A stretch of 64,000 nt of DNA from Amphiscolops sp. MND2022 (taxonomy: Eukaryota). Below the pieces are notes generated by a model. That model was not told where the DNA came from. It searched no databases and saw only the letters and a list, made by a program, of their open reading frames with translations. Below, piece after piece: positions 11,408 through 62,870 of the stretch (within the stretch, counting starts at the first letter, position 1; each line of letters starts with the position of its first letter). The stretch covers positions 46,934,001 through 46,998,000 of the forward strand of contig OZ076417.1 of NCBI GenBank assembly GCA_964187785.1, read 5' to 3'. Both the position numbers and the translations under genes were made by a program.

Positions 11408-11419
11408 TGGCGCAGTAAC
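11408..11419 (+). promoter_or_regulatory. Primer-binding site of element D (TGGCGCAGTAAC)
   Basis: TGG immediately after the LTR terminal CA; cognate tRNA not assigned. Confidence 0.8.
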
Positions 11420-11466
11420 AAGACTTATTTTACCGCAAAACCAAAATTTTAACCGATCAACCACCA

Positions 11467-16940: not shown

Positions 16941-17106
16941 ACAGAGAGACGTATTTACCAACAAACTCTAATTACTGTCAATTTATGTTTGTACTACATA
17001 CATACCATTAGTATAGTTTGAGATACCGCTGAATAGTCACTATAAAGATATAGTCTATTTTCTAGCCTACCCATCTGTTTTTACATTAGAGATTGAGAAT
17101 ACAACA
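16886..17106 (+). repeat. 3' LTR of element D
   Basis: Identical copy of 11187-11407, followed by TSD CAGTC. Confidence 0.98.
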
Positions 17107-28551: not shown

Positions 28552-30190
28552 TGTCGCAGGCTGCAGCCTGTGACGGACCAAGGATAACTACTTCAGCAGT
28601 CGGACGAGAAGCGCAACAGGTACTCTGCCGATATACTAAAACTTTGCAAAGCCTTGAATGAAACTTAATCTATCAGGTACTACTTTCGTATAGTACGATT
28701 TGATATTTTGTACTATTAGTCTGGTAACAATTGTTAGATCATTCAGATTGAAGTATGAATTGCTTAAAGCGTTGGAATGGAAAAAATACGATTGCAATGC
28801 AAAAGTGATTTACTGTGTAGAAGTGCGGAAACGATTTCAAATGAGCTCCCGTACTTCTACGGCAGCGAGACTATCCGGCGAACAAACAACCAATCACAGC
28901 TCTTCAAAGATGGGCGCAGAAATATTATTCGCTGATTAGGGCCACTTGACTATGCTTTGATGATGCTTGATTGGAATTAGGCAATTGGCCGGTGCCAGCC
29001 AGAATATGTATTGATACCATTATTCTGCAGATAATGCTTTTATTTCCTTTAATGAGAGCGCAAGTGTTATTAACGTAATGAAATGCAATGAGTATTTATG
29101 TTTGATGTGAATATTACTTAGTTTATATGAAGTTGTAAGTACTAGTCCTTGGACCGGTTCCAGCTATTGTTTGGAACGTGACACAGTGCTAAATGGTCAG
29201 ATTTGGTTACAACACTAAATTAACCCCTCACGTGTAATTTGAAAATCACTCTGTTCAAATAGGTTTTTATGTCTCACGTCAGCGCATACCTGAGAATGAT
29301 GATGAATATTTGTAATACCTTTCACTATTTGTTGACACTCTGAGGAGTTGTTTTGATTGATAGTGATAAGCTATTTTTTTGAAGTTGCCTTCAAAAGGTA
29401 AAATGAACATTCTGAGAACTCCCCGTTGCTTTGATGTTCATCGACGTCGAAGGTCAGGTGACCTTTCAAGTGCACAATAACCAGGATTCATGTGATTTTA
29501 CTTCAATTGATGAAATTATTAAACAATTGATGATTGCAAAATTGTGAGTGCCATGCCTTAAATGGTTTATATACCTCCAGTTCCATGAGATTGACACAGT
29601 TTTCCGAACAGCTTTCCGTGTTCAAGACGTTTAATAAAAATTCAATTTCCGATATAATATTTCCAATATCATTATCGGATATGTTTATGCCTCCTACAAG
29701 TAAGCAGAAGGGTAACGCTAGAAAATCAAGAGATGCTGATATGATTTCAGACATTGAAAACGTACACATTTGGCTAGGCAGTAATCATCTAGAGAGCGAA
29801 AGAAGCGGACTCAGCAACTCTGTCCGTAGGCGTGAACGTTCTAGTTACAATGCATTGGTGAATCACGATGTTAATTCTCACTCGAATTCAAGAGAAGTTG
29901 AGAATATGGGTTATGCTGGAAACGGCCAGAACTGAAAAGAATTTGACTTCAGTAGTGAAATTAATAGGTTTTCTGGGGAACTGAACCAAAGGATCACTCA
30001 AGAAATGATTGATCTAATGAGTAGTGTGAGCTCACAAATTCAGAGAGCTATAAATGAGGCTATAAAGTCCCTAGCAGAAGACCCGAATGTAGATCTGAAG
30101 ATGCCCTAAACCGCAAATTCAGAAGCAATTCGTAAGATGTGCTTCTTAGAGACTTCAATAGAAACGCAGATCTAGGGAATACTCGATATA
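28552..30190 (+). repeat. 5' LTR of element B (~1.64 kb) containing TATA, AATAAA and the gag start
   Basis: TATATA 29568-29573, AATAAA 29633-29638, ATG (MPPTSKQKG...) 29687; LTR ends immediately before TGGGGACAGGAG. Roughly 80-87% similar by eye to 42079-43808. Confidence 0.75.
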
Positions 30191-31741: not shown

Positions 31742-32153
31742 TTCTCCAAAACCCCCACCTAGTATCAGCCTGAGTTTGCGTATACTAATCAAAATCACTA
31801 ACGTACACACTTTGCGGAAGTGAATTCCAGGCAAAATGTGTACCAGGTTAGAAAGAAATGGATGAAAGCTTCACAGTGGAAAACAGTCAAAGTAATCACT
31901 AGCTTTCAGACTATGATTGTTTTTCACTTTGAAAGTGAATTCCAGTCAAATTGTGTACCAGGTTAAAGTGTAAAACAATCAATTTCCGTCTTCGTGTGTG
32001 AAGTGGAAACCAGTCAAGTTACCTAATTGTAGAGAGTGTAAAGTAGTTATTTACTTTATTTCGATCACTACGCGTAACAAATATCACACAGTGTAACGAG
32101 CAAAACTCGTAACGCGTATCAGAAATAATAACGCGTTTCTATTGGCTGTTAAT

Positions 32154-32179
32154 CGAACTAGCAAGATCTTGCTAGTTCG
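32154..32179. repeat. Perfect 26-bp palindrome CGAACTAGCAAGATCTTGCTAGTTCG (copy at 35640-35665)
   Basis: Read directly; lies near the 3' end of a ~430-bp insertion (~31769-32200). Confidence 0.95.
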
Positions 32180-35100
32180 TTGCGGCATATATATTGTAAT
32201 GAGTTCGACAATACGTCAGATCTGATCTTCGAAGCAAAATATTTCACGATTACCAAGAAAAAAGATGGGGTATTTCTCTGTTGTCTGGCAGCAACAGATG
32301 GAGAAGGCAATTCCCATCACCTATAATAACACCCATCTGTACCGAAAACCAAGTGCTATTTGGGATCCTGATTACACCACAAACTTCAAACCGATTCAGG
32401 CACATTCCCCCCAATGATGACTACAACCCAACATACACCGACCCGGACAGTGGCAGAAATCCCTACTGGGACACCGAACTTTACAACCAGGACTTACTGC
32501 AGTTCCAGCACAATCTTGATGATATTGAACTCTACGAGAGATCAGCGCACGAAAATCTCCAAATGAAAAACAATTCCAAAAGATTTGTGTAACCAAAGAA
32601 TGTGAATATTACTTAGTTTATGTGAAGTTGTAATTACTAGTCCTTGGACCGGTTCCAGCTATTATTTGGAACGTGACACAGTGCTAGTTGGTCAGATTTG
32701 GTTACAACACTAAATTAACCCCTCACATGTAATTTGAAAATCACTCTGTTCACATAGGCTTTTATGTCTCACGTCAGCGCATACCTGAGATTGATGATGC
32801 ATATTTGTAAAACCTTTTACTATTTGTTGACACTCTGAAGAGTTGTTTTGATTGATAGTGACAAACTATTTGTTTGAAGTTGCCTTCAAAAGGTAAAATG
32901 ACCATTCTGAGAACTCCCCGTTGCTTTGATGTTCATCGACGTCGAAGGTCAGGTGACCTTTCAAGTGCACAATAACCAGGATTCATGTGATTTTACTTCA
33001 ATTGATGTAATTATTAAACAATTGATGACTGCAAAATTGTGAGTGTCATTCCTTAAAGGGTTTAAATACCTCCAGTTCCATGAGATTGACACAGTTTTCC
33101 GAACAGCTTTCCGTTTTCAAGACGGTTAATAAAAATTCAATTTCCGATATATTATTTCCAATATCACTATCGGATATGTTTATGCCTCCTACAAGTCAGC
33201 AAAAGGGTAACGCTAGAAAATCAAGAGATGCCGATATGTTATCTGACATTGAAAACGTAGAAATTTGGCTAGGCAGTAATCATCTAGAGAGAGAAAGAAG
33301 CAACTCTGTCCGTAGGCGTGAACGTCCTAGTTACAATGCATTGGTGAACCACGATGTTAATTCTCACTCGAATTCAAGAGATGTTGAGAATGTGGGTTAT
33401 GCTGGAAACGGCCAGAACTGAAGAGAATTTGACTTCAGTAGTGAAATTAATAGGTTTTCTGGGGAACTGAACCAAAGGATCACTCACGAAATGATTGATC
33501 TAATGAGTAGTGTGAGCTCACAAATTCAGAGACCTATAAATGAGGCTATAAAGTCCCTAGCAGAAGACCCGAATGTAGATCTGAAGATGCCCTAAACCGC
33601 AAATTCAGAAGTAATTCGTAAGATGTGCTTCTTAGAGACTCCAATAGAAACGAAGATCTAGAGAATACTCAATACATGGGGACAGGAGACAACGAATCTC
33701 CAAATCCTGTTACCGAGATTCTCAGGGGGCACATCCATCCCACCACGAACGGTACTTAAACGCTCCAATTGCGATTACAATAAATCACTTAATGCGACAT
33801 TACATACTCCAGAACAAAACCCTTCAATGGCCGCACAAGAATCAAACCACAGACTAGCCGATGTACTAATTAATCTGCAGCATCGACCAACAGCCCTACA
33901 ACATCTCACAATCCCCTCAGTCTACTCCAAGTTTGACCTTTTTGAAGATCGTTTCCATACGATGATCAAGATTCAAGAGGAAATGTCAGAGCAGAACTTA
34001 ACCGTTTTCATTCATTTTTCCGCAGAGGAGATCTACAAACTTTTCGAAACATCAACAAGAATAATCAACAAACTCTCGAGGACGTATCAGTCATTTTCAG
34101 GCGCAAATACGTAAAACCAGAATCCCAACTGCCAATCACAAATGGCACCATCTAGTCTTCGACCCCAATACGATGAAATTACCAGACTTCCTCGAAGAGT
34201 TGAGTCAAGGGGCAGAAAAAGCGTTTGAGAGAAAGCTCAAAAAATGATTGACAACCTCCTCTATGCAAAACTGCCACAAAAACTCAAAAGATCACTCAAC
34301 AAGGCCCGTGTTGGGAATGGTTCGTAGGTTGAAATTGTTGCCCATTTTGAGGAGGAAGTGAAGCTTAACGCTCTGGAGGAAGCGGATGACTTGTCAATGG
34401 CAGGAGTGACTTCCTTAACATCTAAACCCAAAAGCCTTTTTCCTATGGACTACTCATCGACACCGTCTGCAACCATTGCAAGGAAAAGCGTCATATGGTC
34501 AAAGACTGCGAGAAACTCAGAAAGAAAAAAGAAAAAGATGCCCAAAAAGGCAATTAAGCTGCAAACTGGAAAGAAAACTTATTCTAAATGTGGAACTTGT
34601 GGCAAAACAAAAAACCCCGAGGAAAAATGTTGGCGAGGTGCAGGCGCGCATCTCGAGCCTAAACACAACAGGCCTGAAGACTCATCGGAGAACAATCTGA
34701 ACTCAAAAGCGCAAAAATCTCAATATAATTCACATCGTCCAGCTCCCAGTCCTCATCACAAGAGGAGAAATCAAAAATTAATTTAGCCCCAACATAACCA
34801 TTAGTATCAGTGCGACACTGTGTCAGATCTAATCCTTCAACCAAAGTTTTCCACAAAAATCAACAAAAACTTAGGGGTATCCCTCTGTTGTCTGGCACCA
34901 ACTCTCATCACATACAATAACACCCATCTATACAAAAACCAATTCCTGGCCAACCAATATGGTACCCTGATCACACAATAAACTTCATTAAAGGATGCCC
35001 AGAAGGGCAAAGCAACTCAGAGGAAATTCTACCCTGTGTGTGGAACTTGTGGCAAGAAAAATCATCCAGAAGACCGATGTTGGCAAGGTGCACATCTCAA

Positions 35101-36129
35101 GCCTAAACGAACTAGGCCTGAAGACACATGGGACATTAATGTGGAATCGAAAGCACCGAAAGCTCACCATACCTCCACATGGTCCAACTCCGAGACCACA
35201 TCAAAAAAAGACGATTCAAAAAACTAATTCTCCAAAACCCCCACCTAGTATCAGCCTGAGTTTGCGTATCCTAATCAAAATCACTAACGTACACACTTTG
35301 CGGAAGTAAATTCCAGGCAAAATGTGTACCAGGTTAGAAAGAAAATGATGAAAGCTTCACAGTGGAAAACAGTCAAGGTAATCACTAGCTTACACACTTT
35401 GATTGTTTTTCACTTTGAAAGTGAATTCCAGTCAAATTGTGTACCAGGTTAAAGTGTAAAACAATCAATTTCCGTCTTCGTGTGTGAAGTGGAAACCAGT
35501 CAAGTTACCTAATTGTAGAGAGTGTAAAGTAGTCATTTACTTTATTTCAATCACTATGCGTAACAAATATCACACAGTGTAACGAGCAAAACTCGTAACG
35601 CGTATCAGAAATAATAACGCGTTTCTATTGGCTGTTAATCGAACTAGCAAGATCTTGCTAGTTCGTTGCGGCATATGTATTGTAATGAGTGCGACAATAC
35701 GTCAGATCTGATCTTCGAAGCAAAATATTTCACGAATACCAACAAAAAATGATGGGGTATTCCTCTGTTGTCTGGCAGCAACAGATGGAGAAGGCAATTC
35801 TCATCACCTATAACAACACCCATCTGTACTGGAAACCAAGTGCTTTTTGGGATCCTGATTACACCACAAACTTCAACCCGATTCAGGCACATTCCCCCCA
35901 ATGATGACTACAACCCAACATACACCGACCCGGACAATGGCAGAAATCCCTACTGGGACACCGAACTTTACAACCAGGACTTACTGCAGTTCCAGCACGT
36001 TCTTGATGATATTGAACTCTACGAGAGATCAGCGCACGAAAATCTCCAAATGAGAAACAATTCCAAAACATTTGTGTAACCAAAGAAGGTGAACCTGACT
36101 CTATACCACTCTCTACCAATATCTACCTA

Positions 36130-44675: not shown

Positions 44676-45125
44676 TTAATTTACTTTCCAGCTTTTGTTC
44701 GAGGGCTTTCTCGTGAGAGCAAGTGACAATTCCAATACATGCAAGTTGTTACGACTATTCATCGGAGTTGTTTTAGAGTTAGTCGCAGTTTGTGTTTTGA
44801 CTGGGGTAGATGTTCTAGTTGCAGAGATGTTTTCCTGGTCCGAATCGGAATCTTGGATGTTTGAACTAATTGGACGTTTTTTACTCACAGGTGCTATGAG
44901 TTTAAGCATTTCCTTTTGGTTTTCAGCGAGTATTTTTGTCAAGTCAGACATAATCTCTTTCCTTAGAGTTGTCTTTAATTCTTCTAAATTCTCAGGCTCG
45001 AGTCTAGGGTTTTTACTAGAACTAGCTATCAGGTTTCCAGTAGAATTGTTCTCAGTTAAAGAAGCTTCGAAATCTCCTGACACTAACTCAGCTACAGCTT
45101 TCCTCTTCTGGCTTCTGGTAGTCAT
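44676..45125 (-). other. LTR-encoded copy of the Gag N-terminus (126 codons) running 23 codons into flanking DNA
   Basis: MTTRSQKRK...TPMNSR, almost identical to the start of ORF 57846-59324, then diverges at the LTR end. Confidence 0.9.
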
Positions 45126-47006
45126 TTTTTAATGTTAGAAAAAACGTTTCTTCGGCAATAGGTGAATTCTTCGAAGACGATTTTGTTCAACGTTGAAACA
45201 ACGAAACAGTTTAAGTTTATTACAACTTGCAAACTCAACTAACTCACTTTACATGCCTTGTCTAAGTATATATACCTTCTTAGCGTCATTTGTTCCTCAT
45301 CTAAAAATTCCTAGGAATCGCAAAAATCAGGTTTGTTCATCAAAAGACGCTAATGATTCAGATTATTTCAGCTCGGCGTCATAAATTCAGGTATTGAGAT
45401 TCCTAGTTGCGTCACTATTCCGTAAAACCTTGTTGAAATCATTTTTGTTCAGATAACCCATTTCCTGTTTGAACTTCAAAATTGCGGCAAAATAGAAGTC
45501 TAGCTTACATTTTCATCAGCGTAGGCACGCCGGCGTGATCAATTAGTCAGCGTTCAAGTTGGGAAATTGAGATTCGAAGCAAAAGAATGACTCGCAAAAA
45601 TTGTAGCGAAATTGAAACGAGGCAAAAGGAACTTTGGACTAAGGATATTTGAATATTATTGAGGAACAAGCAACGCTAAGAAAAACATAATGATGACTAA
45701 TCAATTAATTTTGTAAACTGAACAACTGCACCAACAGTAAACTCAACTTTGACCTATACGTGGCCATAACGTAACAAGTACGAATTGCAAAGTACAAATA
45801 GATAGGAAAAATACATTTGCAGGCAATAATTATTCTGCACTCGATTGGACTTCGTATATGAATAAATAGAGCAGACATCCCGCAACAATAGCACTTGGTT
45901 TGGGTTTCGACGTTGACCTTACGTTACGTTCTGTGAAACATTTTAATGATAAACAACTAATCACTGAATACATAAAACTCTTAATGTAACGTAAGGTATA
46001 CGTGACTCGAGGAACTATTGTAATAGCATCGTTACTCTTCGATCATTGTTTTAGCCTCTTTTTACAGTACAACCTTTTACATGTGGACTTGTTTCCAGAA
46101 CCCTTTAATTGCGTCGATTCAGAAAAATCCTTATTTGATTTCGGTTTAAACTAATGCTTCATCGCTATTATTTTACGAATTGCTCCGTAAATGCTCCGTA
46201 CGTATTAAGATTGGTTATAGCTGAGCGGCGGAATACAATTTTACAATCCGCTCCGTAAGCGCTCCGTACGTATTAAGATTGGTTATAGCTAAGCAGCAGC
46301 AGCAGGCGGAGCGAAAACGGAGAGCGTAGGTGATACTATTCTCTTTTCTTAGCTAGTGAGCGTTGCTAGAGGCAACCAAGTTTAATTCTACTGGTACCGG
46401 CGCGGATAATTCTGCCAACAAACGACGCTATTGGTCCGTAAAAATAGAAACGCCCGTCACCAGCTTAGTTGAGTGACGCTGTCATAACGTTGTAAACATT
46501 TACTTAAAACCGCTTGGTTGCGGTATTAAGTGGATATTTAACAACTACTTTAATATTGGAATACATTTCCACTATATTTTGTATGTTCTTTCATTTTAGA
46601 TTGTATGGACTCCGTTGGGATCTCGGAGTTGAATATTGTTTTGAATGTTTTTATTTCAGTGTGGAGCAGGAAAAATGATCCCATTTGCAAAATTATTTAG
46701 TATTTAGATTGGAATGGAAAACTCAGAAGATGAAACCGGAAATAAAACGGCGTTGCGTGTGAAAACATTAGACCGGAAGTTTTAGCTAGTTTAAAGTCAT
46801 TTCTGAAAATATTCCGTAACGCTTACGTTAGATTCTGTATTCGGAAAATTATCTGCAATCGATTTAGCTGTACTGTAAGTGGAATTTAGATTAGTTTAAG
46901 ATTAGATTAGTTTAATAGAGTTTACCTCGGCCTTGTCCTCGGCCAATTCCGAAACCAGGTATCCCGCTGCAGCAGCTATAATCCCGACCGGGAGCGGGTC
47001 GTGACA
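44747..47006 (-). repeat. 3' LTR of element C (2260 bp)
   Basis: About 14 substitutions and 1 indel counted by eye versus 58946-61204. Confidence 0.97.
46182..46290. repeat. ~41-bp direct repeat (68-bp period) with CCAAT boxes in the LTR U3; copy at ~60381-60489
   Basis: GCTCCGTAA..GCTCCGTACGTATTAAGATTGGTTATAGCT occurs twice; GATTGG is CCAATC on the element strand. Confidence 0.85.
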
Positions 47007-47781
47007 GGGCCCCCCTTGAAGCAAGAGACAAGGGTATAGCTCGGCAATGGGGGATTTCTTTCCTGATGATGACAGGGGGACGGCCGTTGAAAATCCGCGT
47101 GCCGCGACCACGTCCTCTTCCCGATGTCATTTTGGTTATGAGTCTCTCTTCTTCCTCCATTTCTCGGAGCTCCTGTTCTCTTCGCGCCGACTCAATAGGG
47201 CATATTTCTGGCGGTTTAGTAGGGTCGCTTAACGCACATCTGCATTGCTCTCTTTTGGTCGGAGGGGGGGCATTCTCTTTTGCTCCGTAGTGAGTGCGTC
47301 CACGACTGACTGTTGCGAAGAACTGCCGGTCTTCTATGTCTAAACCATGTAGAGCGTCCAATTCTGCTAGCGAAGGCTCATTCAAGTCATTCAGCTTGAC
47401 TGTATTTGGAGCTTTTTCATTTCCCAGCTGGGGAATGTTTGCCTTTTCTTTTAGAACTGGTGTTGGTTTTGTTTGGGGCTGGCTCGGCGGCGTGTCCGGT
47501 TCTTCGTAGAAGTCGGTATCTGAGTTAGGGTTTACTGCTGGCGGTAGATTAAAGCTTACTCTCCCTAGCTTTTTCTTTTTGCTGGGGGTAGGGCCGCGCC
47601 TTTTCGGAGAACAGTCAGACTCGGACGTTGAATTTGTTTCAGCTTCGCTCCCACGAAATACTTCCGTGGACGAGTCACTAAGAGTGCTGACCGTATTGAG
47701 GGGTAGTGTCTTCAATGGCGTGCTGCAACGGTTATTATCTTCGTCGGAAGATATATCTATCACCAACGAGTATCCGTTCAT
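46912..47781 (-). CDS. ORF3 of element C: 289-aa low-complexity protein of unknown function, reading through the PPT into the 3' LTR
   Basis: Uninterrupted ATG-to-stop ORF; PSKKKK basic cluster, GRVSF, acidic/Pro-rich middle, GRGRGRG and GRGQGRG; the last ~31 codons are LTR-encoded. Confidence 0.7.
   Translation of the reverse strand: MNGYSLVIDISSDEDNNRCSTPLKTLPLNTVSTLSDSSTEVFRGSEAETNSTSESDCSPKRRGPTPSKKKKLGRVSFNLPPAVNPNSDTDFYEEPDTPPSQPQTKPTPVLKEKANIPQLGNEKAPNTVKLNDLNEPSLAELDALHGLDIEDRQFFATVSRGRTHYGAKENAPPPTKREQCRCALSDPTKPPEICPIESARREQELREMEEEERLITKMTSGRGRGRGTRIFNGRPPVIIRKEIPHCRAIPLSLASRGALSRPAPGRDYSCCSGIPGFGIGRGQGRGKLY
47010..47017 (-). promoter_or_regulatory. Polypurine tract of element C
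   Basis: AAGGGGGG followed by CCC and then the LTR TGTCAC on the minus strand. Confidence 0.85.
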
Positions 47782-47833
47782 GATTGCAGAGATTAAATTT
47801 TGTAGGATTTTGGCTTATGTCTTCTTTGACTAG

Positions 47834-48356
47834 GTCACGGAGAATTAGTTTGGCAAAGGATGCTGGTCAAGCTTTTATGAAAATTGGACGACAAATGAAC
47901 GTTTCAAATTCTTTTCCTTCGTAATTTTTAACGAAATTCTATTGGTCGGTTTTTCCGTTTTCGTTCCGGTGCGTCTCGAGTTGAAAGAAACGAGTTCTTT
48001 CTTACTGCGTTGTGATTGGTCGAAATAATTGAGGAAAACTTCTAATTCTAGTAGCCGTCCTCTTTTTGGTTAATGGCGTAATGACGTCACACAATTTCAT
48101 AGGTGAATTACGCCTGTGTTCCGTGATCTCCTGATGATTTTCCTAATTCTTCTTTAGCATTTCTTGGTGGATTTTTATCCATCTCTAGGATCTTTGGAAA
48201 CGTTTTGTTCCGTCAATGCCTTAATAGGCTTTTATTGGGGTTGAAGATTAGGGAATTTCCATTTGTATAGGAGTGATATTGCTAATTTCCTTTCACTTAG
48301 TTACGTCCGCGTAACGTAATTCTACCTCTTTTTGATTTTTCTCCTTTTTTCTTCAG
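47834..48356. promoter_or_regulatory. Putative internal bidirectional promoter between ORF3 (-) and the antisense cargo gene (+)
   Basis: ORF-poor spacer between divergent genes; ATTGGTCG at 47941 and 48015 (inverted CCAAT); TGACGTCA at 48082-48089. Confidence 0.45.
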
Positions 48357-48757
48357 ATTGCTGTGAAAATCTTTGCTGCTGTTTCCTCTCCATGGATGAC
48401 GATACTGCTCCGCCCCAAGGCACTATCACTGGATTTGTCAGTGGCAATGAGACCAACTTTTGTTATACTGACGATGACGTTGTCTTTTCGGAGGTAGGAG
48501 ACGGCTGTTACTTCTTCAGGTTGGTAAAATCTTTCTGACTTTCGTGGGTAATTGGACTGTTGTTTTGGTGATCAGCCTTTTCAGTCTTACCCGAATACCT
48601 GACGCGTCAAACCAGATCTTGATTTTCAGTAACTCAACCTGGCGCTTCAACTGCAGTTGTTTCCGTAGCCACTGCGGGATTTCCTTCGACAGCGACTACT
48701 GTTCTGCCATCAGTTTCCACTTTTTTATCTGCCAAGCCCACTAGTGCTGTTAACGAA

Positions 48758-51700
48758 ATGTTAACTACTGTACTGACTAGTGCTGGGCCCGCCGATTCTC
48801 TTCCTGTGGACTCTTCTCCTGTCATCGTTGGTCCTAATACACGGGTTGTTGCTGCGAGTAGCGATAGTGAGTCTCAAGAAGGTGAGACAGATCCCCCCGT
48901 CAATAGAAAAACCCGTTGGTATATTCGTTTTTGGTATTATGTTTCTGACAGGGTGATCGAAATTGTTTTTGGTGTTGTAGATGTGAGGGATATTGAGACG
49001 CAAGGGCCTTCCAACATATGTGTGACGCCATCGAAACGGGCGAAGAAGGTTGTCATCGCTCCGCCATCGCCTCCTCCTCTGATGCACGCTTCTACCGGAT
49101 GGCAAAGTAAGTTCTGTTATTGTTATTATTTCTTTCTGCATACTTTGAATTGAGGGGAGTATCAGTGTCGAATTGGTTTGGTTTCTTCGAGGACATCTTA
49201 ATTTCGGTATTCTTTTTCATTGGTTGTTGATGTTGTGTAGGTCACGATGATGAGCAGTTATATGGTTCCGGTGGAGTGACGTTAAGTCCCCAGGACGTAA
49301 TGCGATTGGGTCAGCAACTTGTGGAAGAGGTGAAGGAGAGTACTGCGTTGGCGATTCAAACCGGTTAGTGTTCGCGTTTTTCGCTGTAATCGGGTATTGC
49401 TTCTGTTTTTTCCTTAGGGTCGTCGTTCATTTTCAGTGTAGCGTGGATTTTCTTTATCACTTTCCTATGTTGTTTTGTAGAGTTGCAAGAGTTCAGTGGG
49501 AGGGTGGAGAAGCGTCTAGCCAAGCGAACAGTGAAGACGTACGGGAATCGCAACACATTGCATCGTCGTATGTTGAGTCGCCATCCTGCATTTCCTGATT
49601 TCGTGACAGGTTCTACGACCGGTGAGGGAACTCACTTCCACTGTCGGGTATGCAAGCGTGATGTGGCCATGAAAGCTCAGGGCTCTGGAGAATTTAGTAG
49701 ACATTTCCGCTCTGATGCGCACTGGTTTAAAGACGTTACTTATCGCGTCCATATGGGTCTTCAGGTGCTCAATAGATTGATGGAACCGATGGAGTTGTCA
49801 GCAAGTCAACTGGCAGATTATAAGTCGCGGCCATTTTGTGATCTGAGCGGGGAGTATCCGTTCCCTGAAGATCTGCTGCCTAAGCATTCGAAAGCGGAGT
49901 CGAACGTGCCTTACATGACCTTGGTTTCTTGCTTTTGTGAATTCTTGCGGAATGGTGGTGATTTCAATTATCTTCGTCGTCTGTGGGGCCACTTCTGCGC
50001 GACATTGGGCGACCAAGAACCTTGCTTTCCTTTACGATGGAGCCGTTCGGAGACTGTGGTGAGTTTTATTATTGTTGTTACTTGTTTTGTCGTATATCCG
50101 GGTGAGAGAAAAACAAAAAGGGAATAGGGGGGGGTATGTCTGTTGTAGTTATTGAGAAAGTAGGGTTTCTTTTGTGTTTCAGTCCTTCCTTTGTCGGGGA
50201 TTGGCTCGGCGAGTTCTTCGTCTGATGGTGAGTGACGTCAAATCTTTTGAAGAGTACGGGATGCACTTTGAGAGGTCTGGGAACGTGGAACATTGCTATG
50301 TTCTTTGTTGGGATGGGCTCAATTTGAAGAAGATTTGTGTGGGCGGTCAGTCTTTGGATCAAAAGATGCCCGAACCCGAGTTGCTTCCGTTGGCGCGTGT
50401 AGCGAACTGTCTGGAAGGACGACAATTACCGGTGTCAGTTCTCGGCGCTAGTCCTTCGCTCATTCGCGTGCTAGACACGAACAGGACGGATGATCGTCGT
50501 TTTCTGTCATGGCAGTCGTTTGATGAGGAGGTGTTTCTCCAGTGTTTCCGTCAGTCTCATCAGGACATTTTTGGAATGGTTGAGGTGACGACTGCATTGG
50601 AGTATGTGATTCATCGATTGAAAGGGGCTCTCTACGAGGATTGGACAGAAGACAGACCTCTTCTTCGAGCGTGCATACGGGAAGGCTCCGTTGCATTCTG
50701 CAACCTTCGTGAGATCCTGTCCGATTTGATTGAGCTGTGGCCTTCCATCCGTCCATACATTCGTTACACTGGACATCCTCATTTTAAGAGTGTTGCTGAT
50801 AGGGTGAGTACTATCGTATTATTGGTTGATTTCAATTTTGTGTTATTCTTTTGTTCCCCTCTGTGCTTTTCCTGAGCTATATATGATTTTGGAATTAAGG
50901 TATAGTTTATCTATTTTAGCTGCGCGGCACAGACTTTGAGTTAATTTCCGATAGTCTCATCGTCTATCGTTTTGGCTTCCTTCGACTGCTTTTAGACTCC
51001 TGTAAGTACGGTGGTTTTTCGTTAGAATTGTTCTTTTTCGACTGTTTCTGATTGTGGTAGCGTATTGACTGATGTTTCTTGTCATTGTGGGTGTGCCATT
51101 GCATCTGGTTTCTATCGGCTGTGGCGTCTTGATCAAAGTTTTCACTTCTTCACGATAATTCTTGTGTTTAGATTACTTCAATTTTGAGAAATTGCTTCAA
51201 TGCCGGAGAGATTACGCATTTCATGGGTACGGTGAGGTCTGCAACTTCGTCTACTGTCTGCTGATGCGAACCCGTAAGCTGGCTGATTTGCCTGGTATCC
51301 ATGAGTGGGAAAGTTATATGGATGTGTCAAAACTCTCCTCGTTCGACGTCATACCCATGGAAGAATTCTTGATGGACAGTGATTTTGGTCGCGAATTGGT
51401 TGCTGTCAAGACGGGTGAGATGCGGGAATTCCGAGTTAAATGCCGCGAGTGTATCGATCGGCTTGTGTCTCTGATTCTTGCCAGCACAGCTGTGACTTCC
51501 GGTGTTTCGCGTGGGCTTTATGCTTTCTGTCCAGAGATTATGTTGGGAGGCGACGATCACCATATCTTCGAGCTGTTTGGCTCTCTTTGTGATTTATTCA
51601 GGTCCTGCCGCGTGATGTCTTCAGACGGTTTGAATGCTGTTGCTGCTGAATTCAAAAGTTATGTGATAGAGAAACGCAGGCATTACGAGGATGCGACATG

Positions 51701-52436
51701 CGCTGCAAGTGATATTCCTGACTTAGTTCAGTTTCTGCTGCGGGATTTTGCCTTTCAATCTCGGACTCATGTGTTTCGGCTGTTTAAAATATGCTGTCTG
51801 GTAGTTGGATTGCCAGATAGTAGCCTCCCTGCGGTTACTATTGATCTGGGTGGTAGTGCGTTGAGTCCGGCGATGGTTCAGGATTGTGTATTGATGGTGC
51901 AGTCCCACGTTGTCAATCCGAGTTTCAATCCTCGATTATTTTTTTCGGCGTCCTTACTTGTTGCAGTCCGGGAAGCTATTGCAGAGGCAGGTATCTTCTT
52001 CAGAGTTGCTGATTTTGACATGTGGAAGGATTTTTGCTCTGGTGATATGGAGTCTTTCGTTGGGCATTATAGGTCCTTGTATCATAAGTATTTGTTGGGG
52101 CGACGGAAGGATTACGACACTTTCTATGTGGAAAGCAACAAGGCTAATCGGCGTTCCCGCGAGATCCAATATTCAAGTTCGACTGAGGCCGGAAGTGCTG
52201 CGAGTTCTGTCGTCGGTTCTAAGAAGGCGTCATCAAAGATTGCTTCGTCAAAGTCTGTGAAAGCAAATGCGTCTACTGCTCGTTCATCGGCAAAAGATGT
52301 GAACAGGGAAGATGGAGCTGTTGCGAAAAAGAGTGGCGGAGGCAGTACGTCTAGAAGATCAAAGAAGGGTAAGGGCAGTGATTCTGATGATCCTGATGTA
52401 GTCCACAATTTGAAAAGGAGATCTTCTAAGAATTAA
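48758..52436 (+). CDS. Spliced antisense cargo gene of element C (~970 aa): S/T/P-rich N-terminus, C2H2 zinc finger, hAT-transposase-like body, basic Ser-rich tail
   Basis: Exons 48758-48881, 48981-49106, 49241-49363, 49481-50058, 50183-50803, 50920-51001, 51172-52436. Six GT-AG introns of 99, 134, 117, 124, 116 and 170 bp; all phases match, giving a 2919-nt open frame. The 99-bp intron is in-frame and stop-free, so less certain. The true 5' end may lie upstream (acceptor at 48629; ATG at 48392). Confidence 0.85.
49642..49722 (+). other. C-x2-C-x16-H-x5-H zinc finger in the cargo protein
   Basis: CRVCKRDVAMKAQGSGEFSRHFRSDAH. Confidence 0.85.
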
Positions 52437-52894
52437 TGGACAGTTGTTTATGGATTGATTTCCTGATGAATTGTATCTTCTGATGTACCTGTTATTTGTA
52501 TTCTTTGTTTTATGGTCTGATTGATATCTGTAAATCACGCTAGTTGTTTGTTATAGTTACGTAGTTTTAGTAGAGTGCAAAAATTGATGTAGTCATTCCG
52601 GTTCGGTTTGACATGCTGATTCTTTTGTCTAGTCCTGAGTTTGTCGTAGTTCTCCCGTAGTGACTGAGTCGAGCATTCTGAAGTCAGGATTGATGTTAGG
52701 ACGTGGATTAGGTCTCAAATTGTATCGGCCTACTTTCCTAGGATTATATCCAACGACTATAGGCGGTAGTTCGGGTGTTTTGGGAGGGCTTCCTATAGGC
52801 GGCGGTGCAAAAATATAGGGGTTGTCGCTGACGTCCAAGTTAAATGACGTTATATTGTCGGAGGAAGTTTTATCTTCTGCCGTATTTTCATTTG

Positions 52895-53020
52895 TGGCTG
52901 TTTGAGCCACGTCATTGGCTGTTATACTTTCGCTTGTGGTTGTTTGAACCACGTCATTTTCCTCTGTAATTTCATTTGTGGTTGTTTTAACCACATCATT
53001 TTCCGTTGTAATTTCGTCGC
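52895..53020. repeat. Three ~42-bp (14-aa) tandem units in the integrase C-terminal tail
   Basis: ITTENDVVKTTTNE / ITEENDVVQTTTSE / SITANDVAQT. Confidence 0.75.
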
Positions 53021-56000
53021 GTCCTGTTGTGTCTGTGATTTCTGTAACTGTGGCTTCTTCTGCGGCGTTTTCGGTGTTGTTTCCGAACAGAACTTCTCCG
53101 AATTCAGTTTCCCAAGCTTGCGCGTACCAATTATTGTGGGTTGTTTTAACCTCTGGGTCTGGAAGGTAATCTTCCCTTCTGACTGTTACGTCAGGTACTC
53201 GTTGATTGGGCGCATATAGCCTTAGGCGAATTCTATGGAGGGTTTGAGTATACCTAGTTCCCGTGCGACGTACGACGTAGTTGTTGTTCGAGAGTTTTTG
53301 ACTACTATGTAGGGTCCAGTCCAAATGCAATCTTTAAAGGCAAATTTCATTGACTGATTGTCTGCTTTCGGATTGAGGACGTAGCAGTAATCGTTGACTT
53401 TGAGCGGTGTAGCCGATGCTTTCTTGTCATAGTATTGTTTGTATTTGAGGTAAGAGTGCATTAGATTCTCTTTTGCAGCTTGGTGTATTTTGGCTATTTG
53501 CTTCTGTAGTTGGTCCGTTATTTCTTCGTTGTTATCTTTTTCCCAGTTAGGTTTCAATCCAAGTTTTATGTCCAAAATGTTGTACGGAATGCGTCCATGA
53601 AACACTGTTGTCGGTGAACATCCTAGGCTTTCATGGTAGCTTGTGTTGTAATTCATGACTGCAATTTGGACGTATTTGTGCCACATAGAGCGTCTTTCTC
53701 CCGTTGAAATTTTTAGGGAGGTTTTCAAAGAGGCATGAGTCCTTTCTAGAATGCCAATTGTTTGAGCGTGTTTCGTCGATGCGTGGCTTATCCGTATATC
53801 CAGTGTTTGTGTTATTTGATTGACTACTTCTGACCTGAATTGTGATCCTTTATCCGTTAGAATGACGGTCGGCAGGTAGCAGTGTCGTGTCATGACGTCT
53901 ATTATGCATCGTGCGACTGTTTTGGCTGTCATGTCCTGTGTCGGGTAAGCGAAAAGGTAACGCGAAAAAACATCCATCATCGTTATGATGTGTTGGTATC
54001 CATTTGAGGAAGGTAGATTTGGTAGGATGTCTACTTCTAGGCAGTCTTCTGGTCCCATTGTGAATTCAGTGTTGCTTAGCATTTTTGGGCGTATTTGTCT
54101 TGTGTCAATTCTTTTATTGGCAATGCAGTCTTGACAGCTGGTTACCCAAGCTCTGATTTTACGTGCAAGACCTGGGAAGTAGTATTTCGCTCTGCATTCT
54201 TGTATCATTTTTGTGATTCCTGGGTGTTTATTTGTTTTTCCATGTAGAGTGGCCAAGAGTTCTGGGACTAGGTGTTTCGGAATTATAATTTGATTATGGG
54301 TGACTGATCTGTCTTCTCCATAGTATTTCCGCATCAGAACTCCATCTTTCATTATGATTCTTTCTTCGTGGCGTAATAGGTTTCGTCCTCGTGGTTCAGT
54401 TTTGAGAAGGTGTTTGTCATATTTTTCGTGTGAGATCCGTTGTTTCAGTGCTTTGAGGAGAGGGTCTGCATCTTGCTCGTTTCTGATCCGTGCATTTTCC
54501 TTAATTGCACCGAAGGAGTAGACTGCGGAGTTGAGTGGTATCTTGATGACTTCGGTTACCTTTGTTGATAGTTCTTTCTCATGTTCGTCTAGGGCGCGTC
54601 GCTTGCTGAGTGCTTTTCGGGCAAAGATTTCTTGTTCAGATTCATCTTCTTCATCAGGTAGGAAGAAAAGTTGTTCTTCGTCAGCTACATCTGATGATTG
54701 TAGATTGACCTCAATTGGGGACGTTAGGATGTCGTCTCGTAGTTTAAGTTGTACCTTTTCTTTCGGTGTAAGTTCAAGTCTTGAAAGAAAATCTGCTGCT
54801 GTGTTTTGGGAGCCTGCTACGTGCATAATTCGAAACTTGAACTGTAATACATAGTCGCAGGCATTCCAGAGTGCAGGGGGTGTCGTTTTGGTCTGGAAGA
54901 ATCTCGTTACTGAGCGGTTGTCTGTTAAGACCAGGGTTGGAATTGTTGCTTCCCATAGTATGTTGCTGTATTCGAGGAATGCATGGTAGATTGCTAAGAA
55001 TTCCTTGCTGTAGATAGACATTTTCAGTTGTGCAGGTGAAAAAACTCGTGATCCGAACGCTACTGGTGCGAAGGTTTTCCGTTTGGAGAGTATTTTGCGT
55101 TCATCGTTCTCCTCAATCATGAGGGCGTAGCCTGACGCGCGAAAGCTTGCGTCCGTCATTAGAACGTACTGTTTTCCTGCTATAGGCTGTCTGAGTGCGA
55201 GTCCACAAGCTTCCGCTAAACTGGCGTTGATTTCCTTAAAGTTATCGACAAGTTCTTCTGAAATTCTGATCTTGGAGTCTGCTTTAAGAAGTTCGTACAT
55301 GCCGATGAGTTTTTCTGATAAGCGCGGTATGTAGTTGCGGTAATAGTTAACAAAGCCAATGTATTTTTGAACTTGTTTTTTGGATTTGGGGAAGCGGACT
55401 TTGGAGAGGAAATTTTTGACTTTTTGATCTTGCGGGGCTACTCCGTCGGGGGTGATGGTTCGGCCAAGAAATTCGATTTGGGTTACTCCAAAATGACATT
55501 TTTCGATGGTTAGTTATAGTCCTGCTTTTCTAATGCATTTGAAGACTGCTCTGATGTTTTTTATGAGCTGTTCCGTTGTGTTTGCGGCAATGCCAATGTC
55601 ATCTACGTATTGTGCACATTGGTCGGCTTTGATGACTGAGTCCAGATACTCGCGCATGAAGCTCGAAAAAGCTGATAGGGCTCTGCTTAGTCCTTGTGCC
55701 AGGCGACGGTAGGCGAACGTCCTACTAGCAAAATTAAAAGCAAGTAACTCTACTGACCTTTGGTCTGCCATTTGAAGGCAGTGATACGCCTGGGAGCAGT
55801 CAAGCTTGCAGAATAGTTTTTTCCCTGCTAGGTGTTGTGCCGCATCTGAGAGGGTGCTGACAGGGTGGTTGTTGTTGATGTAGTCATCTGCTATGAGTGC
55901 GTTGATTTTGCGTAGATCCACCAGCAGTCTCAGTTTGCCGTTGGGTTTCCGTTGTGCAAATATAGGACTGGCGTACTTGGAGAAGGGGAGTGTCGTGATG

Positions 56001-57869
56001 ATACCGTATCGGTGCATGAGGGCCAGTTCTACAGTCAGATCTTCTTTGAGGTTGATGGGTACGGGTAGGCTTTGCGTGTAGACTGGTTTGTCGTCTTGTG
56101 GTGTTAGGCTGACTTTGAATTGTGTGTTCATTCCTATGTCTAGCCGGTGTCGAGCGAAGATGTCATTAAATTCGACAATGGTGTCCTCAAGGTTCTCACG
56201 GTCTTTGCCCGCAATTAGTGAGTCTGTCCAATTGAACATTGATAGAAATTTGTTGCGAGACTCTTCGTTTTCGGTTGGGTCAAGTTTTTCTAGTTCGGCA
56301 AGGTCTCGCAGTTCTTTCAAGATTCGCTTTTGTATGGGCGAATGTTCTTGTTCGTTGCCTGGGTGTTCTGGGGTCGGAAACCAGAATTTTTCTTCATTGT
56401 CTTCGGGCCGTTCTACTTGCATTAGTGCGTTGATGTACGTGACCACATCGTCATGGTCATTGAGGAGATTCAGGGCGGCAATGTCAACCGGGCGGATCAT
56501 CTTCGTTTCTTCGGGTTTCAGGATTTGCAGTTCAGCCATTTTGGTGTCGGTGGCTATTGTGTATGGGAAATATGTGGTGTTGGCGATTTTAATTGGGAGC
56601 TTTTTATCTCTGGTTGTTGTAATCGCTGGGGCTACTATTACCTTCGCGCATTCGTCGAATTGTGGTAGGGGTTGTATTGTACCCGTTATTGAGTGTTCGG
56701 TACTCACAGGGATTGTTGCGTAGATGATTCGGGTAGAGTGCGCTGGAATTGTGTGTTTGGCTTCGGTCTTTATCATGATGGGCTTGGGATTGCACTTTTG
56801 TCTTTCGTCTGTGAGCGCCATTGTGATTTGGATTTTGGGAAAGTCGATGGTTCCTTGTGCCGTGTCGAGAATTGCGGCATGCTTGCGTAGGAACGCTAAT
56901 CCGATTATGGGAAATGACGTTTGATTCATGATGATGAATGTTTCTTCAAAGGTGTAATCGCCTATTTTGAAACGTAGGGTGTACGTGGCGAGTGGTTGTT
57001 CTAATTCAGCATTGGCATATTGCACTTTGAAAGGGGGTGGGGGTGCTTTATTGACGATGCACTGACTAGCGTGCTGTCGGAGTCTTTCAGCGTCTCTTTC
57101 ACTAATAGCGTTAATGTACGCACCTGAGTCAACTAAGGCGTCGATTTTGACCATGTTGAATTCGACTGGTAGAAAAAGCATTCGTTTTTTCTTCTTGAGG
57201 GCGATGGAAGACATTAACGGAATGTAGTCGTCATCTTTGTCATGTTGAATGAATTCTTTGATGGCATCTAGATCTTCGGGTAATTTTGAGGGACATTCCG
57301 TGATTTCTACGTCGTCATTCATCAGTGTTGTGACGGGCGCAATTTTTGGAGAGGTTACTGGAGGGTCGACATTCTCTCGTGTTGTTCGCCGTTGTTGTGC
57401 TCATATTGTTTTGTCTTCAATGCAGATGATATTTTCGGCATCTATCGGTGTGGAGGTGATGGTGGCGGGTACTGTTGGGGATGGTGTTGTTCGTTTTAAA
57501 ATTGGCGATGGTGGTGATGGTAGGTCCATGATTTCTGTGGATTGAGCTTGGGGGTTTGAGACTTGTATTTTGAAGGAGAGTTTGTTAGTATCATAAATGG
57601 TTGGTTCGTCCCAAGGATCGCATCTGTAGTCTCTATCGTAAATGTAGATACGCTCGGTTTTTGATTCCGGCAAGGGTCTCTTGAGTGTTGCATAGTTATC
57701 CGGTGATTCAGTTATCCATTGGGGTAGTGGCGTTGGATCGTCTGGGTGTCTGGCATTGTGTCGGAGGATCATGCCTACATTCCAACGACGTTGCCAGTCC
57801 TGAGTTGGTTCCTCGTTACACTCTGTGAAAAAGTCTTCCTCATACCTATTTGGGGGGTCTTCGATGGTG

Positions 57870-57925
57870 TACGCCCCCGCGTCTACTTTTTCCCCGAAGC
57901 GTAGGCGCGGCGACTTCAGTTTTTT
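57870..57925 (-). promoter_or_regulatory. Putative -1 programmed ribosomal frameshift signal (A_AAA_AAC at 57925-57919, then TGA and a GC-rich stem)
   Basis: The -1 frame is open from the heptamer into the pol ORF at 57772; downstream CCGCG-C-CTAC can pair with GTAG-A-CGCGG; the same heptamer-plus-stop occurs in element B. Confidence 0.75.
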
Positions 57926-59324
57926 GCTTGGGACGACGTTGTAGGTACGGGTTGTTCGTCAATCTTGTTTGTTGGGATATTGAACTCACGTTTGCGTTTT
58001 CTGGGGTCGTTTGCCGCATTGGCTCCGTCCCAGCAATTTTCGGTTTTGTGCATTTCCCACAAGTATCGCATTTGGGTTTAGTTGTATCTGTTTGTTTGGT
58101 GTCTGTGGTACCTGTTTTTGTGGCGTAGTACCTGTCCTTACGGAGGCGACTGCATTGTGCCTTGTAATGGCCATATTTCCCACAGTGGAAACAGTAACCT
58201 CTCTGTTGTTGTTCTCTCTTATCATCCGCCACTGCTGTGTCCACAGTGTTGAGAGGGACTAGGGTGGTTTCATCGGGCGCTCCTAGTCCGTTGAGGCGCA
58301 TTTCGCGTTCAAGGTGTAAAACAATATCGTTATAGGGTTTGTCTTCTAGGTAAGCTCTATTAAGGATCTTTTTTACGTGATCCGGCATTTTAGCGTATAT
58401 GGCTTTGTAGATGAACTTCTGGGCTTCTGAGCCAAACGCTTCCTTTGCGGTTTTTTGTAACTCATTAGGAAATTCGTGGAGTTTTTGTTTAGTGGGGTCA
58501 AAATGCAGCGCATCCCACTCGCATCTCGCTTTAGCGGATGATTGGAAATCGCCAAAGCGACGTTTGAATGCTGTTATGACTTCTTCTAGGTTGTCTTTTT
58601 TAGTGTCGTCTAGATTACAATACGCTTGTAGCGCGTTTCCTCGTAGGAGTGAATGAAAGTAGTTGATCTTTTGTATCTCGGTTAGGTGAGGGTACATTTT
58701 GATATTGTTTCTAAAGAGGTCCTCGAAAAGTTCGAATTTCTCGGAATTACCGTCAAAGGCTGGAAGCGAAGCTGTCAAAGCTTTCGGCATCGGGGGTAGA
58801 TTGGCAGTTGGGAATGTCTGCGGGTGTGGTGCGAACAGGATCTTAGATGTAGAAGGACGGTCTTTTGTTTGTTCATTGGATGCACGTTGTTGTTTCAATC
58901 TTTTCGTGGGTTGGTTGGTAGAGTCATTGAGGACTCCTGTCACCATGTCACGACTATTCATCGGAGTTGTTTTAGAGTTAGTCGCAGTTTGTGTTTTGAC
59001 TGGGGTAGATGTTCTAGTTGCAGAGATGTTTTCCTGGTCCGAATCGGAATCTTGGATGTTTGAACTAATTGGACGTTTTTTACTCACAGGTGCTATGAGT
59101 TTAAGCATTTCCTTTTGGTTTTCAGCGAGTGTTTTTGTCAAGTCAAACATAATCTCTTTCCTTAAAGTTGTCTTTAATTCTTCTAAATTCTCAGGCTCGA
59201 GTCTAGGGTTTTTACTAGAACTAGCTATCAGGTTTCCAGTAGAATTGTTCTCAGTTAAAGAAGCTTCGAAATCTCCTGACACTAACTCAGCTACAGCTTT
59301 CCTCTTCTGGCTTCTGGTAGTCAT
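57916..59324 (-). CDS. gag: gag of element C, starting inside the 5' LTR; 1-nt frameshift near 58053
   Basis: ATG 59324; reads across the LTR end and PBS (CGT GAC ATG GTG ACA GGA); LPAFDGNSEKFELFEDLF capsid-like region; CFHCGKYGHYKAQC knuckle; restoring one A at 58053-58055 gives a second knuckle CDTCGKMHKTENCW and the stop ...AKN* at 57916. Confidence 0.9.
58933..58945 (-). promoter_or_regulatory. PBS of element C (TGGTGACAGGAGT), probably tRNA-Leu type
   Basis: Directly follows the LTR terminal GACA; from recollection, resembles the tRNA-Leu(CAG) PBS TGGTGTCAGGAGT with one mismatch. Confidence 0.75.
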
Positions 59325-61204
59325 TTTTTAATGTTAGAAAAAACGTTTCTTCGGCAATATGTGAATTCTTCGAAGACGATTTTGTTCAACGTTGAAACAA
59401 CGAAACAGTTTAAGTTTATTACAACTTGCAAACTCAACTAACTAACTTTACATGCCTTGTCTAAGTATATATACCTTCTTGGCGTCATTTGTTCCTCATC
59501 TAAAAATTCCTAGGAATCGCAAAAATCAGGTTTGTTCATCAAAAGACGCTAATGGTTCAGATTATTTCAGCTCGGCGTCATAAATTCAGGTATTGAGATT
59601 CCTAGTTGCGTCACTATTCCGTAAAACCTTGTTGAAATCATTTTTGTTCAGATAACCCATTTCCTGTTTGAACTTCAAAATTGCGGCAAAATAGAAGTCT
59701 AGCTTACATTTTCATCAGCGTAGGCACGCCGGCGTGATCAATTAGTCAGCGTTCAAGTTGGGAAATTGATATTCGAAGCAAAAGAATGACTCGCAAAAAT
59801 TGTAGCGAAATTGAAACGAGGCAAAAGGAACTTTGGACTAAGGATATTTGAATATTATTGAGGAACAAGCAACGCTAAGAAAAACATAATGATGACTAAT
59901 CAATTAATTTTGTAAACTGAACAACTGCACCAACAGTAAACTCAACTTTGACCTATACGTGGCCATAACGTAACAAGTACGAATTGCAAAGTACAAATAG
60001 ATAGGAAAAATACATTTGCAGGCAATAATTATTCTGCACTCGATTGGACTTCGTATATGAATAAATAGAGCAGACATCCCGCAACAATAGCACTTGGTTT
60101 GGGTTTCGACGTTGACCTTACGTTACGTTCTGTGAAACATTTTAATGATAAACAACTAATCACTGAATACATAAAACTCTTAATGTAACGTAAGGTATAC
60201 GTGATTCGAGGAACTATTGTAATAGCATCGTTACTCTTCGATCATTGTTTTAGCCTCTTTTTACAGTACAACCTTTTACATGTGGACTTGATTCCAGAAC
60301 CCTTTAAGTGCGTCGATTCAGAAAAATCCTTATTTGATTTCGGTTTAAACTAATGCTTCATCGCTATTATTTTACGAATTGCTCCGTAAATGCTCCGTAC
60401 GTATTAAGATTGGTTATAGCTGAGCGGCGGAATACAATTTTACAATCCGCTCCGTAAGCGCTCCGTACGTATTAAGATTGGTTATAGCTAAGCAGCAGCA
60501 GCAGGCGGAGCGAAAACGGGAGCGTAGGCGATACTATTCTCTTTTCTTAGCTAGTGAGCGTTGCTAGAGGCAACCAAGTTTAATTCTACTGGTACCGCCG
60601 CGGATAATTCTGCCAACAAACGACGCTATTGGTCCGTAAAAATAGAAACGCCCGTCACCAGCTTAGTTGAGTGACGCTGTCATAACGTTGTAAACATTTA
60701 CTTAAAACCGCTTGGTTGCGGTATTAAGTGGATATTTAACAACTACTTTAATATTGGAATACATTTCCACTATATTTTGTATGTTCTTTCATTTTAGATT
60801 GTATGGACTCCGTTGGGATCTCGGAGTTGAATATTGTTTTGAATGTTTTTATTTCAGTGTGGAGCAGGAAAAATGATCCCATTTGCAAAATTATTTAGTA
60901 TTTAGATTGGAATGGAAAACTCAGAAGATGAAACCGGAAATAAAACGGCGTTGCGTGTGAAAACATTAGACCGGAAGTTTTAGCTAGTTTAAAGTCATTT
61001 CTGAAAATATTCCGTAACGCTTACGTTAGATTCTGTATTCGGAAAATTATCTGCAATCGATTTAGCTGTACTGTAAGTGGAATTTAGATTAGTTTAAGAT
61101 TAGATTAGTTTAATAGAGTTTACCTCGGCCTTGTCCTCGGCCAATTCCGAAACCAGGTATCCCGCTGCAGCAGCTATAATCCCGACCGGGAGCGGGTCGT
61201 GACA
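58946..61204 (-). repeat. 5' LTR of element C (2259 bp): TATA 59466-59473, AATAAA 59415-59420, gag ATG 59324
   Basis: Near-identical to 44747-47006; motif order on the minus strand is TATATATA, AATAAA, ATG, LTR end. Confidence 0.97.
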
Positions 61205-62602: not shown

Positions 62603-62870
62603 CCCGGATCCAAATTCATAAGTCTTCCATGCGATTCCATGCATGGAACCATATGGTTCCAGACAATAATTTCATGCCGTTTCCATGCATGGAATTGCAT
62701 GGAAAAATATGGTTCCATGCACAGATTCGCATGGAACCATATTATTCCATGCGAGTCCATGCATGGAAACGGCATGAAATTATTGTATGGAACCATATGG
62801 TCCCATGCATGGAATCGTATGGAATTATATAATTGTAGGCATGAAATCGGATTGAATCATATGGAAAACG
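62603..62870. repeat. Array of short palindromic CCATGCATGG/TTCCATG repeats, probably the subterminal part of a CCC-ended TIR element
   Basis: Starts CCCGGATCC; many ccatgcatggaa units; no matching right TIR found. Confidence 0.6.

Follow-up and report, generated by a model that had tools for sequence, protein, structure and literature searches.

Where the Gag protein of a long terminal repeat (LTR) retrotransposon begins, and whether its start can lie inside the LTR itself, is the question raised by element A, located in a 64,000-nucleotide stretch of the Amphiscolops sp. MND2022 genome (contig OZ076417.1; the whole stretch is called the window, and all positions are counted within it). A sequence-only reading of the window had proposed that gag initiates within the LTR, in a predicted U5, and that the primer-binding site (PBS) is protein-coding. 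The answer offered here is that a gag start in the LTR is very probably the usual arrangement, kept by selection, in a large Ty3/gypsy clade of this genome, with a promoter about 500 nt before the LTR end, an AUG-free leader, a start codon at 59324 and an LTR-coded pre-capsid head.

Anatomy and classification of element A

Element A lies on the minus strand. Its 5' LTR (58946..61204; 2,259 bp, TG...CA, starting TGTCA and ending ACA) is 99.3% identical to the 3' LTR at 44747..47006, identified by self-comparison of the window; the pair differs at 15 positions and is flanked on both sides by the 5-bp target duplication ACTTG. A polypurine tract (AAGGGGGG, 47010..47017, minus strand) is placed 3 nt ahead of the 3' LTR. 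The gag open reading frame (57846..59324, minus strand) has 492 codons in this copy, leaving the family frame near 58050; Gag of the family (family A) is about 469 aa long, with the capsid at approximately residues 180-345 and a zinc knuckle at 377-392. The 492-codon frame matches Pfam DUF1759 (E 1e-9), while Retrotrans_gag and zf-CCHC appear weakly, below cut-off. The pol region (52629..57958, minus strand) follows the order protease, reverse transcriptase (RT), RNase H, integrase (PR-RT-RNase H-IN) and is interrupted near 57400, 55515 and 53300. For the pol of a relative (L131), the best solved match among those listed is Ty3-G (E 2e-46), followed by foamy virus (6e-30), in a list that holds no BEL/Pao RT. 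Element A is thus a Ty3/gypsy (Metaviridae) retrotransposon, with TG...CA LTRs and a target duplication, the corresponding pol order, a tRNA PBS and a polypurine tract. The listed relatives carry no clade name (Osvaldo, Mag, CsRn1, Tor or others), the Atlas entries being generic RT clusters.

Slippery-type heptamers occur at the Gag end just ahead of the stop, near 57920 (minus strand) in the window and in loci L095-L118 (AAAAAAC at 8 loci, GGGTTTT at 3 and TTTAAAC at 1), and suggest -1 frameshifting into pol. Along U3 and gag, at the equivalent of 61000-58150, copies of family A are strongly mosaic, with blocks of 65-80% and 95-100% identity alternating. In the region separating pol from the 3' LTR, a search for an envelope gene gave no Pfam match for a 300-codon sense frame (46912..47814, minus strand) or its counterparts. 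This frame stops 95 nt inside the 3' LTR, and hence both LTR ends are coding. Most other elements carry a sense frame of 209-354 codons at the same place, without detectable similarity. Elsewhere in the window, palindromic stretches of about 200 bp are found at 62625-62824 (91%) and 2090-2298 (80%).

An antisense accessory gene (48355..52436, plus strand; start approximate) is apparently intron-containing and has counterparts in L131-L146; of 10 other elements, 8 carry homologues (21-47% identity) in the same position and orientation, and no Pfam match exceeds the cut-off. For a relative's protein (P0300, 835 aa), which is 99% identical to L136, itself 24-33% identical to the window pieces, a structure model (pLDDT 70) retrieved the Hermes hAT transposase in each of the 11 highest-ranked Foldseek rows listed (E 1e-3 to 3e-2). 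Superposition on Hermes gave Z 12.6 (rmsd 4.9, 397 residues aligned), the next structure reaching Z 6.5. The gypsy clade thus apparently carries a captured derivative of a DNA transposase, with a hAT fold predicted from the model.

An open and selected reading frame in the LTR

The coordinates proposed for the TATA box (59473-59466), AATAAA (59420-59415), ATG (59324) and LTR end are all confirmed. The ATG at 59324 is the first one past an in-frame stop and is situated 379 nt from the LTR end at 58946. Gag therefore begins, as proposed, inside the LTR: 126 codons (58946..59324, minus strand) are encoded there, and the frame continues through the LTR end and PBS without a stop before the capsid. 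At the stop frequency of U3, where the longest open run is 72 codons, a run of 126 open codons has a probability of about 4e-4, and the open LTR frame is hence not due to chance.

Selection on this segment was assessed by aligning the window copy with 39 other 5'-LTR copies of family A (81-99% identical). From ATG through PBS, 39 of the 40 copies are open, a share inflated by the 11 copies that had been chosen for their open frames in a protein search; in a set assembled without such a choice, 126 codons are open in 21 of 30 LTR ends. Over 391 pairs below 93% identity (which are not independent), dN/dS is 0.08 in the 126 LTR codons, 0.22 in the 49 codons from the PBS onwards and 0.04 in the capsid. 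Read in its two other frames, the LTR segment yields 1.66 and 2.01; U3 and the leader yield 0.53-0.84. Variants common to at least 3 copies number 18, 8 and 65 at codon positions 1, 2 and 3 of the LTR-coded part, as against 24, 33 and 44 in U3. A lack of purifying selection on these codons had been named beforehand as an outcome speaking against the proposal; the 126 LTR-coded codons are under purifying selection across the 40 copies. Furthermore, of 12 within-family pairs drawn from family A and other families, 10 give a dN/dS of 0.07-0.25 for the LTR part and the remaining 2 are saturated.

The LTR/PBS junction

The 12-nt PBS (58934..58945, minus strand; TGGTGACAGGAG from 58945) directly follows the 5' LTR, is complementary to the 3' end of tRNA-Leu(CAG) plus CCA and codes for (M)-V-T-G, so that the junction is translated R-D-M-V-T-G. 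A G at position 58949 of element A's 5' LTR accounts for the D; the 3' LTR and relatives give R-N-M-V-T-G. A fixed G/A difference between 5' and 3' LTR ends was considered and rejected, the G being private to this copy. The genome holds 825 matches to the tRNA 3'-end pattern complementary to the PBS, and of 6 loci examined with ARAGORN, 2 were called as tRNA-Leu(CAG) genes whose end coincides with the pattern. On one strand, 814 of the 825 matches are found, with a long tandem array (period about 296 bp) running from 35587798 of G000:C8, which may be an amplified primer-tRNA array.

Three frames could cross the junction. Frame +1 runs into TGG TGA at once in 30 of 30 loci, and in 14 of 30 the LTR terminus already holds a stop for frame +2; only A/TG GTG ACA GGA (the slash marking the LTR end) is generally open, and the M-V-T-G peptide is therefore forced by DNA signals. 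Similarly, the junction methionine exists because the LTR end and PBS start spell CA/TGG, and by itself is uninformative about the start codon. Over the leader-to-PBS stretch, predicted RNA structure is not special (z -1.3).

The integrase att end and the PBS had further been proposed to be under dual constraint. Both are indeed coding, and codons 123-133, which span them, hold no variant common to at least 3 of the 40 copies, which fits constraint at the DNA level; this part of the proposal is weakened by some capsid blocks that are nearly as quiet because the copies recombine.

Promoter, leader and start codon

In each of the 17 family A copies displayed, the TATA box of element A (TATATATA, 59466..59473, minus strand) is kept, either as TATATA or as TATAAA. 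Across the clade, TATAWAW is found 122-157 nt ahead of the ATG in 11 of 20 loci, the strict form being absent at that distance in 9. Motifs of the type TTAGT, which resemble the initiator consensus, are located 30 nt past the TATA box (59439..59445, minus strand) and would place the transcription start near 59443; TCAGT/TCATT/TCACT-like words occur at a similar distance past TATA in several relatives. The putative leader (59325..59443, minus strand) thus comprises 119 nt without any ATG. In the leaders of relatives (TATA+28 to ATG), 0 ATGs were counted in any frame over 1,254 nt in 11 of 11 cases, compared with 49 in equal lengths upstream of TATA; this count took the 11 loci with TATAWAW and left out the other 9 of 20, and the absence of ATG in the Gag frame is partly true by definition. 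As ribosomes scan a leader and start at the first AUG, an AUG-free leader would make 59324 the Gag start. The TATA box, the initiator-like motif and the AUG-free leaders all point to the LTR ATG.

The sequence of events suggested by these features is as follows. Transcription would be driven by a promoter about 500 nt before the LTR end (TATA at 59473, start near 59443), a ribosome would scan the 119-nt leader and begin Gag at 59324, and minus-strand strong-stop DNA would be about 500 nt long. Translation and priming would share one RNA at different times, as in Ty1.

The suggestion in the sequence-only reading that a downstream methionine at the PBS could be the real start is disfavoured. Gag would then begin at 58946, the upstream frame being open by chance or coding for a separate peptide. 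The junction methionine is present in 14 of 14 aligned Gags, and it serves as the called start in 9 of 42 scorable representative proteins; however, its presence follows from CA/TGG and from the search pattern, and the calls reflect gene-caller choices. Several in-frame AUGs precede it, and the 126 codons upstream are selected in frame, without a stop before the capsid. A start at the junction is therefore very unlikely, while a minor, shorter Gag form made from it by leaky scanning is possible. A start at 59324 is compatible with more than one R/U5 map, and the proposed 'short R, long coding U5' is unproven. The candidate poly(A) signal AATAAA (59415..59420, minus strand) is conserved in 36 of 40 family A copies yet is not clade-wide: of 20 clade loci, 5 have one, at varying places, in the last 190 nt ahead of the ATG. 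Since the ATG may lie in R or in U5, 'coding R or U5' is the better wording. Poly(A) 3' ends elsewhere than about 59400-59380 are a possibility held tentatively, as the less probable map. It is favoured by the absence of the leader AATAAA from 15 of 20 clade loci, by an AGTAAA near 59216 in 40 of 40 family A copies (though the region is coding there) and by a search for A-tailed genomic copies ending near the signal at 59420, which gave 0 matches. A GT-rich tract, usual downstream of the signal at poly(A) sites, follows AATAAA 59420 in family A and argues against it, as does the decayed element B of the same window, with AATAAA in the 5' LTR and ATTAAA in the 3' LTR at about the same place. 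A mapping of R from recombination, by which one U3 type was joined to different leaders at 59455-59443 (seen by eye in several copies), was rejected: a four-gamete scan, run over 303 sites, places this interval outside the 15 strongest, and breakpoints are found everywhere.

Distribution of the layout in the genome

The LTR start of gag is widespread beyond element A. Across 1.07 Gb there are 7,689 occurrences of the junction motif ACATGGNGACAGRAG, compared with 24 for the reversed control. Among the first 30 loci, the frame through A/TG is open for at least 100 codons upstream in 24, and the other two frames in 0 of 60. In 10 of 10 elements, picked by the author among those with long frames, LTR similarity (upstream DNA against the 3' LTR) stops at the junction, one base later by chance in one of them. 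The LTR-coded length ranges from 103 to 215 codons (309-645 nt) over 20 loci, and 13 aligned Gags are 23-82% identical to that of the window. One element with near-identical LTRs (L109/L139) runs from the LTR-coded head straight into pol without a capsid region and is probably a non-autonomous deletion type.

The window itself offers two further elements for comparison. Element B has a 5' LTR at 28552..30190 (plus strand), a 3' LTR end at 43808 and the target duplication TGCAA. It had been described as having the same layout, and the motifs are as described: TATATA at 29568, AATAAA at 29633, ATG at 29687 (a second in-frame ATG at 29681) and the LTR end at 30190, followed by a PBS-like TGGGGACAGGAG from 30191. 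The element is decayed, with a stop at codon 83 and frame changes; its layout is nonetheless recognisable because 37% identity to intact relatives begins at residue 1. Its LTRs are about 83% identical, the 5' LTR lacking about 72 nt of the coding part, and a 3.5-kb tandem duplication (29105-36093, 96.4% identical) repeats the LTR end, PBS and gag. A young short-LTR gypsy element of another lineage (11187-17106, plus strand) has identical 221-bp LTRs and a single 1,593-codon gag-pol frame that starts after the PBS, and the LTR-coded layout is therefore specific to the clade of element A.

Nature of the LTR-coded Gag head

The 126 LTR-coded residues would form a pre-capsid head consisting of a basic tail, one amphipathic helix and a disordered linker. 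Any role given to the head draws on composition and on a low-confidence AlphaFold2 model of Gag (mean pLDDT 50), in which residues 1-41 and 81-177 are disordered, a confident helix spans 44-77 and the capsid helices follow. With this low-confidence model as query, Foldseek ranked the capsids of PNMA2 and Arc first (E 0.04-0.9). Residues 126-130, at the junction, belong to the linker predicted to be disordered; the att end and the tRNA-Leu PBS would thus sit where fixed residues cost little. Pfam searches of the LTR-coded heads returned no family over the cut-off, only weak helix or coiled-coil rows. In other families, the same order of parts (a basic start, then a central helix, then a polar linker) is discernible by eye, without alignable sequence.

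The first 14 residues carry 2-7 K/R in 20 of 20 loci, compared with 1.1-1.9 per 14 in the remaining head. In Tf1 Gag, the first ten residues are required for nuclear import (PMC7175516), and by analogy the basic tail is probably a nuclear-localisation or nucleic-acid-binding signal. A nucleosome-binding role, also by analogy, was considered; histone genes are found in the genome.

Gag heads on 3' and solo LTRs

Each replication cycle would copy the LTR-coded stretch into both LTRs. On the 3' LTR of element A, the copy of the Gag head (44676..45125, minus strand) is open for 149 codons, 23 of them in flanking DNA. The expectation that 3' and solo LTRs carry a Gag N-terminal frame open into the flank holds for 14 of 20 such LTRs, with tails of 1-60 codons. 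That such frames could be a source of chimeric proteins is borne out by one case at the DNA level: a 3' LTR inserted in frame into another reading frame yields a 380-codon frame (L175:716-1855, minus strand). It joins the Gag head to a 254-residue tail with a CCHC finger and an endonuclease-like PD...E.K motif (a weak Pfam row only), presumably similar to the end of an R2/NeSL-type element. This case was found among the six longest frames picked, of which another (L178) has a 110-codon tail and the other four are 5' LTRs.

Whether these heads have a function of their own is a separate matter. If expressed from solo-LTR promoters, they might interfere with particle assembly or nuclear import, controlling copy number in the manner of Ty1 p22. 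Ty1 is restricted by a truncated Gag (PMC7175516), the frame is open in the majority of 3' and solo LTRs, and solo LTRs appear to be numerous: the exact end motif of family A has 417 occurrences, of which 145 have the PBS directly after them, and the 272 ends without an exact PBS next suggest more than 100 solo LTRs. Nevertheless, the open share of 3' and solo LTRs equals that of 5' LTRs (7 of 10), as passive copying predicts, and the tails are random. Selection on the frame is thus no evidence that 3' or solo copies function, and such a role is distinctly unlikely. As the stretch is copied into both LTRs, selection on the 5' copy most likely yields the frames of 3' and solo LTRs as by-products. 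A bolder reading, somewhat less improbable yet doubtful, takes every LTR of the clade as a complete mini-gene open at its 3' end (promoter, AUG-free leader and 100-215 selected codons that include a basic targeting tail and a helix), with thousands of 3' and solo LTRs making head peptides or fusions that act as a brake or seed nuclear-targeted chimeric proteins.

Comparison with known systems

In Ty1, the PBS directly follows the LTR. The PBS of this Saccharomyces cerevisiae element is located within the GAG ORF (PMC4974528), and its RNA has a 5' UTR at nt 1-53 and the PBS at nt 95-104 (PMC5454406), which places the Ty1 AUG in the LTR. Similarly, Tca5 of Candida albicans (Ty5-like, Ty1/copia) has a 685-bp LTR with the first ATG 382 bp from the 5' end; its reading frame thus begins about 300 nt inside the LTR, about 100 codons being LTR-coded in what was termed an 'unusually deep inset', with the start left open (PMC4139406). 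The sequence-only reading, which took gag to start normally downstream of the PBS, therefore overstated the surprise of the layout. Element A shares with Ty1 a Gag frame that opens within the LTR and a PBS that codes for protein. The two differ in extent (about 41 nt, or 14 codons, in Ty1 and 309-645 nt in the clade of element A) and in kind: Ty1, a Ty1/copia element, has integrase before RT and a tRNA-iMet primer, whereas element A has integrase after RT and tRNA-Leu(CAG). Tca5 is a single low-copy fungal copia element with few solo LTRs, and the section describing it holds no selection test; the clade of element A, in contrast, is gypsy, with thousands of junctions, up to 215 LTR-coded codons and dN/dS of 0.07-0.25.

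Among gypsy elements, the PBS of Ty3 lies outside GAG (PMC4974528) and Cer1 has a 5' UTR after the LTR (PMC10309623). The clade is nonetheless Ty3/gypsy-like in its PR-RT-RH-IN order, Ty3 as the nearest solved RT, tRNA PBS, polypurine tract and 5-bp duplication, and possibly in an Arc/PNMA2-like capsid (weak E). Plant Retand (Tat) gypsy elements possess a long region separating pol from the 3' LTR, with conserved antisense ORFs (PMC11963269). These encode a plant TRP28 domain, and the word 'intron' is absent from the main text of that account, whereas the antisense gene of the element A clade has no Pfam match, apparent introns and a Hermes-like predicted fold. Phrase matching in open-access text, which misses older and subscription papers and Repbase, found no report of an animal gypsy clade with 103-215 LTR-coded codons, and the portion of PMC6451197 consulted holds nothing on an LTR-coded Gag layout.

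The layout has practical consequences. Annotation that seeks ORFs only between the LTRs cuts 100-215 residues off Gag and takes the junction methionine as the start. Furthermore, every 3' or solo LTR offers a promoter joined to a Gag N-terminus, so that the genome's thousands of copies allow tests of gene birth by LTR fusion and of self-restriction through Gag fragments. The arrangement known from Ty1 and Tca5 is now seen in a dominant gypsy clade, where it takes in an entire region of the protein and is accompanied by evidence of selection that the Tca5 account lacks. In sum, element A belongs to Ty3/gypsy and behaves as Ty1 and Tca5 do in starting gag within the LTR.
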